Shown: positions 1 through 14,883 of the stretch, in pieces
How the letters are laid out: each line of letters begins with the position of its first letter
Numbering within the stretch: position 1 is the first letter of the stretch
Position numbers and translations under genes: made by a program
The notes under the pieces: model-generated
What the model was told of the DNA's origin: nothing
The model's database searches: none
What the model saw: the letters and a program-made list of their open reading frames with translations, nothing else
From: Escherichia coli
Lineage (GTDB): Bacteria > Pseudomonadota > Gammaproteobacteria > Enterobacterales > Enterobacteriaceae
Strand: one strand, 5' to 3'
NCBI RefSeq assembly: GCF_044324875.1
Contig: NZ_CP172185.1
Length of the DNA stretch: 64,000 nt

Positions 1-1467
1 TTACTGGTATCAGAAATAGCGCCGTCTTTAACGTTGGTGATGGTACTGGTAGTATCTGTACCATGTGCCGCACTATATGCCTTTTTAAGGGAGTCCCATT
101 GTAACGTATTATTGTCCAGGCCCGTTAAGGCGTCGCCAACAGTGCCGAAAATACCACTTTTCAGCCTGTAATTTGGGGAAGTAACGACGCCTTGCGCATT
201 GACGGTAGCCCCCCCACCAAGATTGTCCGCTACTGACTTACTGATAGCATAAAGCTGTGATCCATTGATGGCATCAGTACTGGTAGTGCTGATATCACCT
301 GCTGCCATATTGACAATTTGTCGCTGAGCTGTTGTGTTACCCACAGAAACAGTATCCGCGTCAGTCGCTACAGAACCAGCACCCAGAGCAACTGAATTTT
401 TCCCTTGAGCACTGGCTTGAGCACCAATTGCAGTGCCATTTTCTAAACCGGCATAACTGCCTTGTCCAAGAGCAATAGCATTTACACCACCTGTAATACT
501 ACCATTACCCAGCGCGATAGCATTTGCGCCGTCAGCTTTATTCCCTTGACCGATGGCAATTGCGCCAGCCGCTACTGCCTGACTTTGATTGCCCAGAGCA
601 ATCGTGTTGTCGACATCTGCAATACTGCCGGAGCCCAACGCGATACTATTAAGTCCATTTGCCTCCGCGTTAGTACCAACTGCCGTCGCATTTTCAGCAG
701 CTTTGCTCTCTGCACCCATAGCAATCGCGTTTGCGGCGCTGGCGGCGGATTGTCTGCCGAATGCGAGGCTGTCTACGCCAGCTGCAGCACTGTTGCGGCC
801 TACTGCAATCGCGTTAGCTGCAGATGCGGCGCTACTTGCACCCAGCGCCATTGCATATTCTTTCGACGCATTAGCCGTGGCTCCGAGGGCGATACTCATA
901 ATTCCTAAGGCCTTGCTTTCACGTCCAAATGCGATGGCGTCATCAGCACCAGTCTCTGCGTAATCCCCTTGTGCAATAGAAAATTCACCTGTTGAGTTTG
1001 CATAACGACCAAGTGCGATTGAAAATCCACCCGTTGACGTTGCCGATGCACCTATAGCGAGGCTTCGCTCACCTGCTGAGGTAGTGTTAATCCCTAACGC
1101 CACTGATGCTTCGCCAAGCGAATGGGTCTTAGCGCCGAGGGCTGTTGACCACCTTCCGTCAGCAGTTGCGTGATAACCTACTGCGGTGCTGGAGCCACCC
1201 CCGGTGTCTGTAAAACTATTTGCTTTTACATCTTCACCGATAGCAACCCAGCCTGTTCCTGTTCCCTGGCCATAATTGACGCCCTGACCGTTGTCCCTTC
1301 CTGCCTGAGCCTGTACCCCAAACGACGACAACATTCCCCCAGCAACCAGAGCAGAAATTAACAGCTTACTGCGCCCGGATTTCTTGCCACGGCTCTTCGC
1401 CGTTTCGCTGGCAACGGTGTAACTGCCCGTCGCCGGATTCCAGATAACTTTAAATATTTTGTTCATT
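1..1467 (-). CDS. Trimeric autotransporter adhesin (YadA-like; UpaG/EhaG/SadA-type), N-terminal part only; C-terminus lies beyond the window start
   Basis: Minus-strand ATG at 1465-1467; translation begins [21 protein letters not shown] (extended autotransporter signal peptide) followed by many Gly/Ala/Ser-rich head repeats (SxALG, NAIAxG); reading frame stays open to position 1. Confidence 0.8.
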
Positions 1468-1509
1468 ATTGATGCTCTCTATTCCTTGATATAAGCGCAG
1501 AAGCTGCAT

Positions 1510-2193
1510 TTATTTTTTGTTTTTTCGCTGCCGAGTTTCAGCAGGTTGAACAGTGTCGAACTGGAGATTGTCCATATTGATGGACAACTTCAGATACTTC
1601 AGGTTATTAGGCGAAACGCCTTTTAATGTCAGATTAATGTCTTGCCATTGGCCAGGCATTAATTGCAGAGTGGAATTCATGGTGGTGTTGAAAAGTAATT
1701 GTTGCCACTTTGCCAGAGCTTTGGCATCGGTGGGTCTTTCATTGCCCCATGTCGCATGAAAGCCAATATTTGATACGGGAACGCTTAAAAGGTTAACCAG
1801 CGAAATACGAATAACACTGCCATTTTCAACCGCATCAATAGCCAGCACCCGGCCTGCCAAACCGACCGATCCGTTATTTAAAATGAAATATTGTGTTTGT
1901 GCTGGGTTAAATTCTGTAAAGACAAATTCGTCCTGCTTGTCTTTAACCGCTTTCACCACGCCAGCGAGCGTCTTGGTACTATTTATGACAGTAGTTTGTT
2001 GTTTTTCAAAATGTTCTATCTTTCGCTTATCGAGTTCCTGCTGTTTCTCAAGCGCCTCAATTTTGCTTTTTTGCAACTCTTGCTGTGTAACGAGGTCGTC
2101 GACCTTACTCGCTTTTTCAATATAGTCACACCCTGCCAATAAGCAGAGAGGCACTATTATTAACACGCTTAACAGTGTTTTCTTTAGGTTCAT
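1510..2193 (-). CDS. Lipoprotein with N-terminal coiled coil, SadB-like putative partner of the downstream adhesin
   Basis: Track ORF 227 aa; signal peptide with lipobox LLAGC; heptad-like Q/E/K-rich segment; stop 1510 lies 42 bp upstream of the adhesin start on the same strand. Confidence 0.6.
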   Translation of the reverse strand: MNLKKTLLSVLIIVPLCLLAGCDYIEKASKVDDLVTQQELQKSKIEALEKQQELDKRKIEHFEKQQTTVINSTKTLAGVVKAVKDKQDEFVFTEFNPAQTQYFILNNGSVGLAGRVLAIDAVENGSVIRISLVNLLSVPVSNIGFHATWGNERPTDAKALAKWQQLLFNTTMNSTLQLMPGQWQDINLTLKGVSPNNLKYLKLSINMDNLQFDTVQPAETRQRKNKK

Positions 2194-2750
2194 AGGATGA
2201 ATTCCTTTTCATAATCCCGATACAGTTGATAATTACGGCACAATCATTTTTTTATGAATGATTAGAGTGGAGCATATCCGACAAATAAATTTGTTAGAGA
2301 ATTTTTGTATTAATTGGTTGTGCGAATATGTTATTAAGTGTCAAACAATTTCGGTTTGTGGCCAATAATATTAATCGCGCGGATTTTAATGATCGGTGTC
2401 AATCAATGTCAAATGTTTCACCGGATAAAGATATAGCGGAGGGAAAGGTAAATATTCAGTTGAGTGATGTTTTATTGCGAAGTTTGCGATGCTGATAGAA
2501 AAATTTAAATAATTAATTATGTTTCAAGCATTGATATGCGGTAATTCATTGTTGATATTGATACATCATTATTTAATTTGTACCTGCTTTTCAGAATTTA
2601 GCCTGCTCCGAGCGCTCAGAAGTGTAGGTGGAGTTGAATATATAATGTTAAGAACGTTACAAATATTCGATCTCTGAAACAGGCTCCTGCATGTGCCAGC
2701 AGGAGCGAGTAAATCGTGAGTGGCTGTAATTACAGCGACGAGAAAGGAAC

Positions 2751-3113
2751 TTAAAACGCAGTCTTAGAGAACCCTGTCATCTCTTGCAGGCCCATTTCGC
2801 GGCCCAGCGCGGTCATTGGGTGCACAACGACCAGTCCGCGAACGCTCTTCTTCAGTTTGCCCATATCAGCTTGCTCTTTTTTAGTAATCGCGCGCTGGAA
2901 CGGCATCTTCATCAGCTTCTGTGCTTCCTTACTGAGTTTCTGGCTGTGAACTTCGCGCAGGCGAGCAATTTCTGCTTCCAGAGTGGCTTTCTCTTTTTCC
3001 AGTTCAGCATATTTGTCTGCGGCTTCAACCAGCGACAGATCGGCCTGCTGGTGGCGGATGGCGTCCAGACGATCGCTGAGACGTTTGATTTCGTTTTTTT
3101 CGACTTCTTTCAT
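2751..3113 (-). CDS. yibL: YibL, conserved ribosome-associated protein
   Basis: 120-aa ORF beginning [23 protein letters not shown]; position next to mtlR/yibT. Confidence 0.8.
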
Positions 3114-3396
3114 GTGATGGCTTCTGATAAAGATAAATTTATAGCCCCTAGTATGCGCGACCAGGTGCTTTATTCACAACTGATGACATTGCAATAGTTC
3201 TATAACGTAAACATTAACATGCTTAAAAACTACGCAATTTATTGATTAATTAAGAAATTTAAAGAAAAAAGATAGTTAACAAAAGCGGATGATTATTGAG
3301 GATTGAGCACGTTTTCCTTAATGTCATTTATACCGGGATCTAAACTAAAATTGGCGGCCGCGCATTCCCGGCGCGGGGTTATACGGAGATATCATC

Positions 3397-3606
3397 ATGG
3401 GCAAATTAGGTGAAAACGTTCCGCTTCTTATCGATAAAGCCGTAGATTTCATGGCATCGAGCCAGGCGTTCCGGGAGTATCTGAAAAAACTACCTCCCCG
3501 TAACGCGATTCCGTCCGGAATACCTGATGAAAGCGTGCCGTTATATCTACAACGTCTGGAGTATTATCGTCGGCTTTATCGGCCGAAGCAGGTAGAGGGG
3601 CAGTAA
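3397..3606 (+). CDS. yibT: YibT small protein
   Basis: 69-aa [17 protein letters not shown]..., convergent with mtlR. Confidence 0.65.
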
Positions 3607-5353: not shown

Positions 5354-5383
5354 AGTATTAACCTTCATCAATGTTTTTACCCG

Positions 5384-5575
<192 letters not shown>

Positions 5576-5581
5576 ATTGGA

Positions 5582-11701: not shown

Positions 11702-13542
11702 TTATTGCGACTGCCGGACACGTTGACCACGGCAAAACAACCTTATTGCAGGCGATTACTGGCGTAAATGCCGATCGTCTGCCGGAAGAAAAAAAGCGCG
11801 GCATGACCATCGATCTCGGCTATGCCTACTGGCCGCAGCCGGATGGTCGCGTGCCTGGTTTTATCGACGTACCCGGTCATGAAAAGTTTCTTTCCAACAT
11901 GCTGGCGGGCGTTGGTGGTATCGATCACGCGCTGTTGGTGGTGGCGTGCGATGACGGCGTGATGGCTCAGACTCGTGAGCATCTGGCGATTTTGCAGCTG
12001 ACCGGTAACCCGATGCTGACAGTGGCGCTGACCAAAGCCGATCGCGTGGACGAAGCGCGTGTTGATGAGGTTGAACGCCAGGTAAAGGAGGTGCTGCGGG
12101 AATACGGTTTTGCTGAGGCAAAACTGTTTATCACCGCAGCAACCGAAGGTCGGGGAATTGATGCCCTGCGCGAGCATTTGCTTCAGTTACCAGAACGTGA
12201 ACACGCCAGCCAACATAGTTTCCGCCTCGCGATCGACCGTGCATTTACCGTAAAAGGTGCCGGGCTGGTCGTCACCGGTACGGCGTTAAGCGGGGAAGTG
12301 AAGGTAGGCGATTCACTCTGGCTGACTGGTGTAAATAAACCGATGCGTGTACGTGCGCTGCATGCACAAAACCAGCCAACAGAAACCGCCCATGCCGGGC
12401 AGCGTATCGCGCTTAACATCGCGGGTGATGCGGAAAAAGAGCAGATTAACCGTGGCGACTGGCTGCTTACCGATGCGCCGCCGGAGCCGTTCACACGGGT
12501 GATTGTCGAGCTTCAAACCCATACACCGCTGAACCAGTGGCAGCCGCTGCATATTCACCACGCCGCCAGCCACGTCACGGGACGCGTTTCGCTGCTTGAA
12601 GATAACCTTGCCGAGCTGGTGTTCGACACGCCGCTATGGCTGGCGGATAACGATCGCCTGGTGCTGCGCGATATCTCGGCCCGCAACACGCTGGCGGGGG
12701 CGCGTGTGGTGATGCTTAACCCGCCGCGTCGCGGTAAGCGTAAGCCGGAATATCTGCAATGGCTGGCGTCTCTTGCACGGGTGCAGAGTGATGCCGATGC
12801 GTTATCTGTTCATCTGGAACGCGGAGCGGTTAACCTTGCAGATTTCGCCTGGGCACGGCAGCTCAACGGCGAAGGGATGCGCGAACTGCTGCAACAGCCT
12901 GGTTATATTCAGGCTGGTTATAGCTTGTTGAATGCGCCGGTTGCCGCCCGCTGGCAGCGGAAAATTCTCGACACATTAGCGACTTATCATGAGCAACATC
13001 GCGATGAACCTGGTCCTGGGCGAGAACGTCTGCGACGTATGGCGTTGCCAATGGAAGATGAAGCGCTGGTACTGTTGCTGATTGAAAAGATGCGCGAAAG
13101 CGGCGACATCCTCAGTCATCACGGTTGGCTGCATCTGCCGGATCATAAAGCGGGCTTCAGCGAAGAGCAGCAGGCCATCTGGCAAAAAGCAGAGCCGCTG
13201 TTTGGTGACGAGCCGTGGTGGGTGCGTGATCTGGCAAAAGAGACGGGAACCGACGAGCAGGCAATGCGCCTGACGCTACGCCAGGCGGCGCAGCAAGGAA
13301 TTATTACCGCGATCGTTAAAGATCGTTATTACCGTAACGATCGGATTGTCGAGTTTGCCAATATGATCCGCGATCTCGATCAGGAGTGTGGTTCAACCTG
13401 CGCGGCGGATTTCCGCGATCGCTTAGGTGTTGGTCGAAAACTGGCAATTCAAATTCTGGAATATTTTGACCGCATTGGCTTTACGCGTCGTCGTGGAAAT
13501 GATCATTTATTGCGCGACGCATTATTATTTCCGGAAAAATAA
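11698..13542 (+). CDS. selB: Selenocysteine-specific translation elongation factor
   Basis: 614-aa ORF with GTPase P-loop [11 protein letters not shown], overlapping the selA stop by 4 bp. Confidence 0.95.
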
Positions 13543-13601
13543 GGAAATGATTAATTAAGTTTTAAAATAAATTAATACAAAATTCTTATGAATTTAAAAA
13601 A

Positions 13602-13637
13602 AGCACATTGTTTAATGAATACAATGTGCTTTTTATT
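13602..13637 (+). terminator. Rho-independent terminator downstream of selB
   Basis: 9-bp stem agcacattg / caatgtgct followed by tttttatt. Confidence 0.55.
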
Positions 13638-13731
13638 AGATTAATTTTGATAATCAATAATACTGATCATATTTTTGAATGAAAATCCTCAGTAAGCTGC
13701 CCGCCCTTTTTTACACTTTCAGGAGTGTGTT

Positions 13732-14883
13732 ATGGCAGCTTCAACCTTTTTTATTCCTGCCGTGAATGTTATTGGTGCTGATTCATTGAATGATGCAATG
13801 AATATGATGGCAGATTATGGATTTACCCGTACCTTAATTGTCACTGACAATATGTTAACGAAATTGGGTATGGCGGGTGATGTGCAAAAAGCACTGGAAG
13901 AACGCAATATTTTTAGCGTTATTTATGATGGCACCCAACCTAACCCCACCACGGAAAACGTCGCTGCAGGTTTGAAATTACTTAAAGAAAATAATTGCGA
14001 TAGCGTGATTTCCTTAGGCGGTGGTTCTCCACACGACTGCGCAAAAGGTATTGCGCTGGTGGCAGCCAATGGTGGCGATATTCGCGATTACGAAGGCGTT
14101 GACCGCTCTGCAAAACCGCAGCTGCCGATGATCGCCATCAATACCACGGCGGGTACGGCCTCTGAAATGACCCGTTTCTGCATCATCACTGACGAAGCGC
14201 GTCATATCAAAATGGCGATTGTTGATAAACATGTAACTCCGTTGCTTTCTGTCAATGACTCCTCGCTGATGATCGGTATGCCGAAGTCACTGACCGCCGC
14301 AACGGGTATGGATGCCTTAACACACGCTATCGAAGCGTATGTCTCTATCGCTGCAACGCCGATCACTGACGCTTGCGCACTGAAAGCGGTGACCATGATT
14401 GCCGAAAACCTGCCGTTAGCCGTTGAAGATGGCAGCAATGCTAAAGCGCGTGAAGCAATGGCTTATGCCCAGTTCCTCGCTGGTATGGCGTTCAACAACG
14501 CATCTCTTGGTTATGTTCATGCGATGGCGCACCAACTGGGCGGTTTCTACAACCTGCCACACGGTGTATGTAATGCTGTTCTGCTGCCACACGTTCAGGT
14601 GTTCAACAGCAAAGTCGCTGCTGCGCGTCTGCGTGACTGTGCTGCTGCCATGGGCGTTAACGTGACAGGCAAAAATGACGCGGAAGGCGCAGAAGCGTGC
14701 ATCAATGCCATCCGTGAACTGGCGAAGAAAGTGAATATCCCGGCAGGCCTGCGTGACCTGAACGTGAAAGAAGAGGATTTCGCGGTACTGGCCACCAATG
14801 CCCTGAAAGATGCGTGTGGGTTTACTAACCCGATTCAGGCAACTCACGAAGAGATTGTGGCAATTTATCGCGCTGCGATGTAA
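13732..14883 (+). CDS. yiaY: Iron-containing alcohol dehydrogenase
   Basis: 383-aa ORF with Fe-ADH family motifs ([11 protein letters not shown], histidine cluster). Confidence 0.9.

Follow-up and report, generated by a model that had tools for sequence, protein, structure and literature searches.

Genomic context of the yibL-sadB spacer

The DNA analyzed here, referred to as the window, is a stretch of 64 kb from E. coli, and its first 8 kb are 99.0% identical to several strains. The minus strand carries the genes mtlA, mtlD, mtlR and yibL in this order, with yibT on the plus strand, and yibL is followed on the minus strand by a lipoprotein gene and an adhesin gene:

2751-3113, minus strand: yibL, encoding a ribosome-associated protein of 120 aa, with the stop codon at 2751-2753 (open reading frame list and NCBIfam)
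1510-2193, minus strand: gene for a SadB-type inner-membrane lipoprotein (DUF3251) of 227 aa, the first gene of the operon
1-1466, minus strand: 5' part of a trimeric autotransporter adhesin gene (UpaG/EhaG/SadA type), which leaves the window at its left end

The YibL protein matched the NCBIfam equivalog NF008244 above its cut-off (E = 8e-57), and the gene is named yibL in matching genomes. The lipoprotein aligned to the solved SadB structure, PDB 4C47 (E = 1.3e-70), and is annotated in matching genomes either as a DUF3251 or as a SadB/YajI lipoprotein. The adhesin fragment matched trimeric-autotransporter families, and matching genomes label the gene YadA-like family protein or EhaG. The lipoprotein and adhesin genes are separated by a gap of 43 nt, and the arrangement is that of sadBA/upaG/ehaG, in which the gene of a SadB-family lipoprotein immediately precedes that of a trimeric autotransporter. 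The lldP gene lies outside the window and was found at the locus by synteny in matching genomes. Based on these data, the locus is the published sadBA/upaG/ehaG operon between mtl and lld. UpaG is an adhesin of uropathogenic E. coli, EhaG of enterohaemorrhagic E. coli and SadA of Salmonella. The sadBA operon, the function of SadB and the mtl/lld location were described by Grin et al. 2014 (PMC3953254), and upaG corresponds to c4424 of CFT073 (PMC3203889). SadA and SadBA are not expressed in culture, and their native inducing conditions are unknown (PMC3953254). Other publications (PMC7312957, PMC5595812, PMC5854682) name UpaG/EhaG without regulatory detail.

The region upstream of upaG in CFT073 and of ehaG in EHEC O157:H7 occupies the same chromosomal position (yibL, lipoprotein gene, trimeric autotransporter gene, lldP), with the same products. 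The spacer of the window is an allele of the same family as the spacers of UPEC strains, e.g., UTI89 and Nissle (92-94% identity). We found no essential difference between the upaG/ehaG region and the window, which represents another allele; the promoter position, the invariant TCYGAAAA motif and the hairpin comparison reported below come from the present analysis. In Salmonella enterica, the orthologous sadBA operon likewise lies between mtl and lld, and 44 nt separate its lipoprotein gene from the adhesin gene downstream. Its spacer has the same layout, i.e., a hairpin, TCYGAAAA and TTGACA-17-TAGCAT, whereas beyond these conserved blocks the sequence could not be aligned to that of the window. 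The native sadBA promoter was neither used nor mapped by Grin et al. (PMC3953254). Taken as a whole, the region is an ordinary and largely known control region, together with the 3' end of yibL.

Composition and coding content of the spacer

The gap between yibL and the lipoprotein gene spans exactly 2194-2750 (557 bp). Its GC content is 0.350, or 0.324 for 2194-2680, i.e., without the 70 bp beside yibL, in comparison to 0.505 for the whole window, and an equally low value was reached in only 0.5% of all 557-bp segments of the 64 kb. The GC minimum of the 64 kb (2112-2668, GC 0.329) overlaps the spacer, and the TpA step occurs 84 times per kb in the spacer versus 47.

A spacer of 557 bp, containing plus-strand open reading frames of 32-55 codons, could hide the gene of a small protein or a small RNA, but we consider this very improbable. 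None of the open reading frames in the spacer was conserved in frame between alleles, and the sense (minus) strand of the spacer contained no ATG-initiated frame of at least 14 codons. Matches between alleles at the peptide level all fell on the promoter block, on both strands and with a changing frame. A permissive Rfam scan of 1400-3500 returned only a spurious match to U4 (E = 6.4), the predicted leader folded no better than its shuffled versions, and the sequence was scrambled between alleles outside three short blocks and the hairpin. The spacer had been introduced in the preliminary description as a stretch of about 550 bp, AT-rich and non-coding, preceding the lipoprotein gene, and this is what we found: 557 bp with 35% GC and no conserved open reading frame.

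Spacer alleles and conserved blocks

We compared 16 spacers, comprising E. coli alleles and those of Escherichia sp. E1V33, E4742 and E10V10, E. marmotae, E. ruysiae, E. fergusonii, Salmonella enterica, Pseudocitrobacter vendiensis and P. corydidari. Five close loci were obtained by a scan of genome contigs with one protein, and the other species were reached by protein look-ups. Gene order was identical in all 16 alleles, the spacers measured 489-560 bp and their GC content was 0.29-0.36; the first eight spacers, aligned together, showed 44-77% mutual identity. A common layout was present in the 16 alleles, consisting of a GC-rich hairpin after the yibL stop codon, TCYGAAAA, about 175 nt of intervening sequence, TTGACA-(17/18)-TAnnAT, and a leader of about 183 nt.

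Conserved blocks of 10 columns were searched for using one representative for each of six independent lineages, with 30 shuffled-and-realigned controls. The mean column identity across the six lineages was 0.38, and the maximum among the controls was 0.64. Three blocks exceeded all 30 controls:

2597 to 2588, minus strand: ATTCTGAAAA, score 0.89, rank 1
2390 to 2381, minus strand: ATTAAAATCC, containing the -10 element, score 0.85, rank 2
2414 to 2405, minus strand: ATTTGACATT, containing the -35 element, score 0.83, rank 3

The sequence between the hairpin and the promoter has changed extensively, and we delimited it as a separate feature:

2413-2682, minus strand: AT-rich hypervariable upstream region, recognized by its GC content, its C/G ratio and a scrambled sequence of maintained length

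In the window, the sense strand of this region is C-rich and G-poor (C/G 1.72). C exceeded G on the sense strand between the hairpin and the promoter in every one of the 16 alleles, with ratios ranging from 1.36 to 2.70. The region presumably serves as a silencing platform and as an insulator between yibL and the operon promoter.

Ancestry and distribution of the locus

The order of yibL, spacer, sadB and adhesin gene is kept in E. coli, E. fergusonii, E. marmotae, E. ruysiae and further Escherichia lineages, as well as in Salmonella enterica and two Pseudocitrobacter species. No mobility genes flank the locus in the matching genomes, where lldP, the adhesin gene, the lipoprotein gene and yibL are the only genes annotated. 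E. coli K-12 lost the operon by a deletion of about 5 kb (Grin et al., PMC3953254). In carrier strains, all 371 bp of the K-12 yibL-lldP spacer align past the adhesin gene; about 11 bp beside yibL are unaccounted for, and the edge of the deletion lies about 11 bp from the yibL stop codon. Since the K-12 spacer aligns beyond the adhesin gene, the hairpin belongs to the block that is absent from K-12. The adhesin had previously been described as horizontally acquired. Due to the synteny across three genera, the lack of mobility genes and the deletion in K-12, we consider the locus ancestral and this description unsupported, although alleles do move. The main correction is that the locus is ancestral, has been deleted in K-12-like strains and exchanges alleles, and is not an inserted island.

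We surveyed 5,426 complete E. coli genomes, 5,413 of which have yibL, and 5,398 of the 5,413 fell into three classes:

about 1,875 genomes: the spacer family of the window, made up of an allele with 92-98% identity and an ST131-type allele with about 70% identity
about 2,261 genomes: an EhaG/W/O157-type spacer that BLAST does not align to that of the window
about 1,262 genomes: the K-12 deletion junction

The K-12-like deletion is thus present in about 23% of complete E. coli genomes, and the closest spacer among the 5,426 genomes was at most 98.2% identical to that of the window. Spacer and sadB alleles cut across species, and the segment is discordant with the flanking core gene. For example, O145 and Escherichia sp. 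E1V33 share 96.5% identity in the spacer and 98.8% in sadB versus 93.1% in yibL, while E. coli W and the JBRJ strain share 98.1% identity in yibL and are at the saturation baseline in the spacer. Between allele classes, the similarity ends exactly at the yibL stop codon. This pattern indicates that the resident locus has probably undergone allele replacement or carries an ancient polymorphism, as opposed to the insertion of an island.

Predicted promoter and leader of the operon

Within the spacer we identified the following elements upstream of the lipoprotein gene:

2383-2412, minus strand: predicted sigma-70 promoter of the sadB-adhesin operon, with the -35 element TTGACA (2412-2407), an 18-nt spacer and the -10 element TAAAAT (2388-2383)
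2194-2376, minus strand: predicted 5' leader of about 183 nt (GC 0.30), as it follows from the predicted promoter
2242-2263, minus strand: A/U-rich inverted repeat AAUCAUU-N8-AAUGAUU, present in the MFE and centroid folds
2202-2207, minus strand: Shine-Dalgarno element AAGGAA, 8 nt before the ATG at 2193

The predicted promoter was the only promoter-like site on the minus strand in a scan of 2000-3450 and the best on either strand, with 11 of 12 matches. The scan ranked the same site first in W, O145 and E4742 and joint first in Salmonella. TTTGACA was invariant in the 16 alleles, and the -10 element was TAnnAT throughout, as TAAAAT, TAGAAT, TAGCAT or TAACAT. The positions kept in TAnnAT are those that matter most for sigma-70. 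A spacing of 18 nt between the hexamers was found in 15 of the 16 alleles and one of 17 nt in Salmonella, both within the 16-18 nt range accepted for such promoters. An 18-nt spacer is sub-optimal. In comparison to their flanks, the hexamers show purifying selection: the -10 block scored 0.85 and the -35 block 0.83, versus a maximum of 0.64 after shuffling and realignment. In the window, the -10 element TAAAAT is directly followed by a GC-rich CCGCGCG, and transcription is predicted to start at about 2375-2377. The promoter is located near the middle of the AT-rich tract 2112-2680. The presence of this strongly conserved predicted sigma-70 promoter agrees with the earlier proposal, in which the spacer regulates the lipoprotein-adhesin unit from upstream. 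A GATC sequence in the promoter spacer (2391-2394) led us to consider a Dam-dependent phase switch, which was rejected as the site is not conserved between alleles.

Between the -10 element and the ATG lie 163-202 nt in the first 12 alleles, and the leader is 156-195 nt long across the 16. The whole leader of the window did not fold better than its shuffled versions (z = -0.04), and a structured leader, i.e., a riboswitch or a thermometer, was rejected based on this value. The inverted repeat in the leader is kept, with arms that are shifted or compensated, in UpaG-type alleles and in P. vendiensis, and is absent from EhaG-type alleles and from Salmonella. The spacer alignments show conservation of an AAGGAA or AGGA element.

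Invariant upstream motif

The highest-scoring conserved block lies upstream of the promoter:

2588-2597, minus strand: invariant motif ATTCTGAAAA, with the core TCYGAAAA at 2595 to 2588

At least one copy of TCYGAAAA was present in each of the 16 alleles, with a second copy in Salmonella only, and the aligned copy was located 171-184 nt upstream of the -35 element. The motif was not enriched elsewhere in the 64-kb window. It is conceivable that TCYGAAAA is the docking site of a conserved sequence-specific regulator, a counter-silencer that switches on the sadBA/upaG/ehaG operon; we offer this tentatively, with the odds somewhat against it. The consensus sites of CRP, FNR, Fur, IHF, Fis, RcsAB, SlyA, Cra, ArgR, EvgA and SdiA, compared with it by eye, did not fit the motif across alleles. 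A SlyA-like sequence matching at 9 of 12 positions just upstream of TCYGAAAA in the allele of the window was discarded because it is not conserved. About 24 nt downstream of TCYGAAAA, a TATAWA sequence is semi-conserved in many alleles, and the window has TATCAA at this place.

Given the TATAAT or TATAAA that many alleles have at a constant distance downstream of the motif, and the hairpin of the window, which has no proper U-tract, the operon might be driven mainly from elsewhere, either by a second promoter after TCYGAAAA or by read-through from yibL over a leaky hairpin. We regard this as unlikely. The TATCAA of the window lacks both the T at position 6 and a usable -35 element, the scan reported no second promoter in the window, O145 or E4742, and the TATAWA block scored 0.56, under the shuffle maximum of 0.64. 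As for read-through from yibL, such RNA would be untranslated and C-rich. Both versions also have to contend with the invariance of TTGACA/TAnnAT.

Hairpin downstream of yibL and its probable role

Two hairpins were predicted in the transcribed (minus) strand downstream of the yibL stop codon:

2723-2736, minus strand: small first hairpin GCUGU-AAUU-ACAGC, seen in predicted folds and only in UpaG-type alleles
2683-2706, minus strand: main hairpin with a perfect GC-rich stem of 8 bp and a loop of 8 nt, followed by CUGUUUCA

The main hairpin begins 44 nt past the yibL stop codon and consists of GCAGGAGC (2699-2706), the loop (2691-2698) and GCTCCTGC (2683-2690). It is the hairpin with an 8-bp stem and an 8-nt loop of the preliminary description, which had placed it one base to the left, at about 2682-2705. 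Folded alone, it reached -16.5 kcal/mol (z = -2.6 versus shuffled sequences), and its 121-nt context had a z of -3.3. Finding a perfect 8-bp stem by chance in 557 bp is only mildly improbable, and the significance of the hairpin comes from its conservation, not from the perfection of its stem. The core stem is paired in all eight alignable alleles, with two G-U wobbles. Covariation is modest in a stem that hardly varies, with 20 of 500 shuffles reaching the observed score. In P. vendiensis, both arms are changed (GCUCCUGU and ACAGGAGC) within a stem of 12 bp that is followed by UUUU. In the unalignable alleles (W/O157, Salmonella, E. fergusonii, E. ruysiae, P. corydidari and E4742), this place is taken by a GC-rich stem that differs in each. 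In 12 of 12 alleles tested, the first 110 nt folded better than shuffled sequences (z from -1.2 to -5.3), and four later alleles show equivalent stems too. The small hairpin reads GUUGU and ACAAC in the SCPM allele, where both arms have changed with the pairing kept and the stem extends to 9 bp.

It had been suggested that this hairpin might be a yibL terminator. Like intrinsic terminators, it is a GC-rich stem-loop 44 nt past a stop codon, with canonical versions at the same place in other alleles: E4742 has GCCCCG and CGGGGC followed by UUUUUU, and the stem of the JBRJ strain is followed by UUUGCUUC. Unlike in them, the 8 nt that follow the stem in the allele of the window contain only 4 U (CUGUUUCA), short of the 5 of 8 that we took as a U-tract and that E4742 and JBRJ attain. 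Most alleles, including that of the window, have no U-run after the stem and a C/U-rich sequence instead. A consensus terminator scan of the minus strand of 2000-3450 called no terminator, and the scan was also negative in the W, Salmonella and O145 alleles. The stem is stable, conserved and elsewhere accompanied by canonical U-tracts, while the window has a poor U-tract and a negative scan, and the hairpin is probably a weak intrinsic terminator or a 3'-end structure of yibL. Because some alleles carry textbook terminators at the same place, the conserved role of the stem would most simply be to end the yibL transcript. Only weak or partial intrinsic termination is expected in the allele of the window, since its U-tract is poor and the scan was negative.

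Rho prefers RNA that is untranslated, C-rich and G-poor. As the sense strand downstream of the stem matches this preference, we infer, reasonably in our view, that Rho may act as a back-up, with the stem as a trimmed 3' end. Taken further, the hairpin may not be a terminator at all but a protective 3' stem, up to which exonucleases trim a yibL transcript terminated by Rho, or a protein-binding site. The missing U-run in most alleles, with C/U-rich sequence in its place, the negative scans of the window, W, Salmonella and O145 and the excess of C over G throughout the sense strand all point in this direction, whereas the textbook terminators at the same place in E4742 (UUUUUU), P. vendiensis (UUUU) and JBRJ (UUUGCUUC) point away from it; we see it as a possibility to be kept in mind rather than the expected outcome, and continue to favor a weak terminator. 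The terminator and protective-stem readings overlap, as both place the 3' end of yibL at the stem. A sigma-54 promoter in the hairpin loop (CTGGCACATGCA) was rejected by eye, its GG and GC elements being 7 nt apart and not 12.

Proposed H-NS silencing and control of the operon

The AT-richness of the spacer had been read as typical of promoters silenced by nucleoid proteins of the H-NS type. The composition fits this reading, with a GC content of 0.35 versus 0.505 and an excess of TpA. The high-affinity H-NS motif (tCGATAAATT type, at most 2 mismatches) occurred once in the spacer versus 0.7-1.3 expected, and AA/TT periodicity, which is a crude proxy for curvature and not a curvature model, had a p of about 0.22 in this allele and was strong only in W/O157. 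Totsika and colleagues reportedly found in 2012 that expression of EhaG and UpaG is enhanced in hns mutants of EHEC and UPEC. PMC5012682 and PMC3966885 cite this study for H-NS repression of UpaG and list UpaG among the H-NS-repressed autotransporters of UPEC. Like H-NS-silenced promoters, e.g., those of bgl, proU and, in UPEC, upaC, upaH and the F9 fimbriae, the operon has a competent predicted sigma-70 promoter with AT-rich DNA on either side and is not expressed in culture, and de-repression in hns mutants is reported in the literature. In the allele of the window, the proxy for high-affinity sites is negative and the curvature proxy is not significant. The adhesin part has a GC content of 47-59%, and the genes themselves are not low-GC foreign DNA. 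In the sequence, an H-NS-type promoter is supported only by the AT-richness and the TpA excess; the H-NS motif is not enriched, and A-tract phasing is not significant in this allele (p ~0.2). The position of the promoter near the middle of the AT-rich tract would suit a model in which H-NS coats both flanks.

It might be argued that the AT-richness reflects drift of a long, weakly constrained spacer, with no specific role of a nucleoid protein, and most of the spacer does evolve as if unconstrained, with neither the H-NS motif nor the curvature proxy enriched. Drift would have to account, however, for a length of 489-560 bp, a GC content of 0.29-0.36 and a strand bias that are kept in all 16 alleles despite the turnover of the sequence. 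A near-consensus promoter that is silent in culture also needs explaining, and the repression of UpaG is ascribed to H-NS in the two papers mentioned above. We consider drift quite improbable.

Our preferred reading, to which we assign a probability of roughly 70%, is that the spacer separates the transcription of yibL from that of the sadB-upaG-type adhesin operon and acts as a control region, with an H-NS-silenced promoter. According to this model, which is built from sequence comparison, the main hairpin (2706 to 2683) would end or stabilize the yibL transcript, with termination being partial given the poor U-tract, and the next ~270 nt of untranslated C-rich, G-poor RNA would be a substrate for Rho to stop read-through. 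The sigma-70 promoter (2412 to 2383) would start transcription near 2376, giving a leader of about 183 nt with a good ribosome-binding site before sadB. H-NS on the AT-rich DNA of both sides may keep the near-consensus promoter off in laboratory conditions, and a counter-silencing signal would be needed to open it. TCYGAAAA, about 175 nt upstream of the -35 element, is at a guess the best candidate site for a sequence-specific factor that counteracts silencing. The promoter at 2412-2383 and the invariant upstream motif are concrete targets for experiments, and they are leads, not surprises.

For the Salmonella operon, expression data are available from a Δfur mutant. The effect on STM3690 (sadB) was ascribed to a predicted Fur box, and STM3690 was also listed as Fnr-regulated (PMC3212961); the published Fur box for STM3690 was absent from the Salmonella allele that we examined. 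In the same mutant, STM3690 was down 4.2-fold and hns was up 3.1-fold, which lends indirect support to repression by H-NS, and the authors state that H-NS-repressed genes go down in Δfur (PMC3212961).

Allele-class boundary at the yibL stop codon and the K-12 junction

When E. coli allele classes are compared, the shift in similarity falls exactly at window 2750/2751, i.e., at the yibL stop codon. DNA identity between the classes is ~94.5% before the stop, and past it the sequences are unalignable. The YibL protein is 100% identical across the compared E. coli strains, save for one substitution in O145. SadB identity between the allele classes is only 65%.

In K-12, the strain with the adhesin operon deleted, the entire yibL-lldP spacer (L003 2529-2899) corresponds to the sequence located downstream of the adhesin gene in the carrier strains (compared with L001:327-602 and L002:45-404), with ~11 bp beside yibL being the only part that has no counterpart there. 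The hairpin AAGGGCAAUUCUCUGAUGAGGAUUGCCCUUUUCUUU is part of this spacer, as is a REP-like element. Since the K-12 spacer is adhesin-downstream sequence, yibL of K-12 has therefore acquired the terminator of the adhesin operon following the deletion.

FNR-like element in the promoter spacer

The FNR consensus is TTGAT-N4-ATCAA, and a similar element was detected between the -35 (2412-2407) and -10 (2388-2383) hexamers of the predicted promoter, together with a GATC site:

2389-2402, minus strand: FNR-like element TTGACACCGATCAT, with 8/10 matches to the FNR consensus, within the promoter spacer
2391-2394: GATC, inside the promoter spacer

Judged from its position in the sequence, binding to the FNR-like element would be repressing rather than activating. 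Allele comparison revealed that conservation of this element does not extend to the Salmonella or E. fergusonii alleles. STM3690, the Salmonella sadB, is listed as Fnr-regulated (PMC3212961).

Gene calls and contig labels in the comparison genomes

In Escherichia sp. E4742 (L017 631-1007), yibL is called as a 37-aa DUF2810 fragment and an overlapping antisense 60-aa ORF. These split gene calls suggest that yibL is disrupted in this genome; its C-terminal codons are intact despite the split call. For the SadB-family gene, the annotation in O157:H7 (L009 5776-6444) is 15 nt shorter than that in W (L010 5775-6458), and the N-terminal region of the two aligns in full. The 15-nt difference is probably one of start-codon annotation. 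Two contigs carrying the E. coli locus, L006 and L007, are labelled as Oscillospiraceae and Collinsella metagenome-assembled genomes, and are almost certainly binning contaminants.

Other AT-rich or variable stretches of the window

The divergent yibL/yibT intergenic region (window 3114-3396) is likewise very AT-rich, with a GC content of ~0.32-0.36, and window 13446-14002 (GC 0.338) is the second-lowest GC stretch in the 64-kb window. The mtlA-mtlD spacer (window 5354-5581) comprises 228 bp, whereas other strains have 94, 229 or 319 bp at this position. When the mtlD ORF is extended upstream, the added part translates into an arginine-/glycine-rich string, which is typical of REP/BIME repeats.
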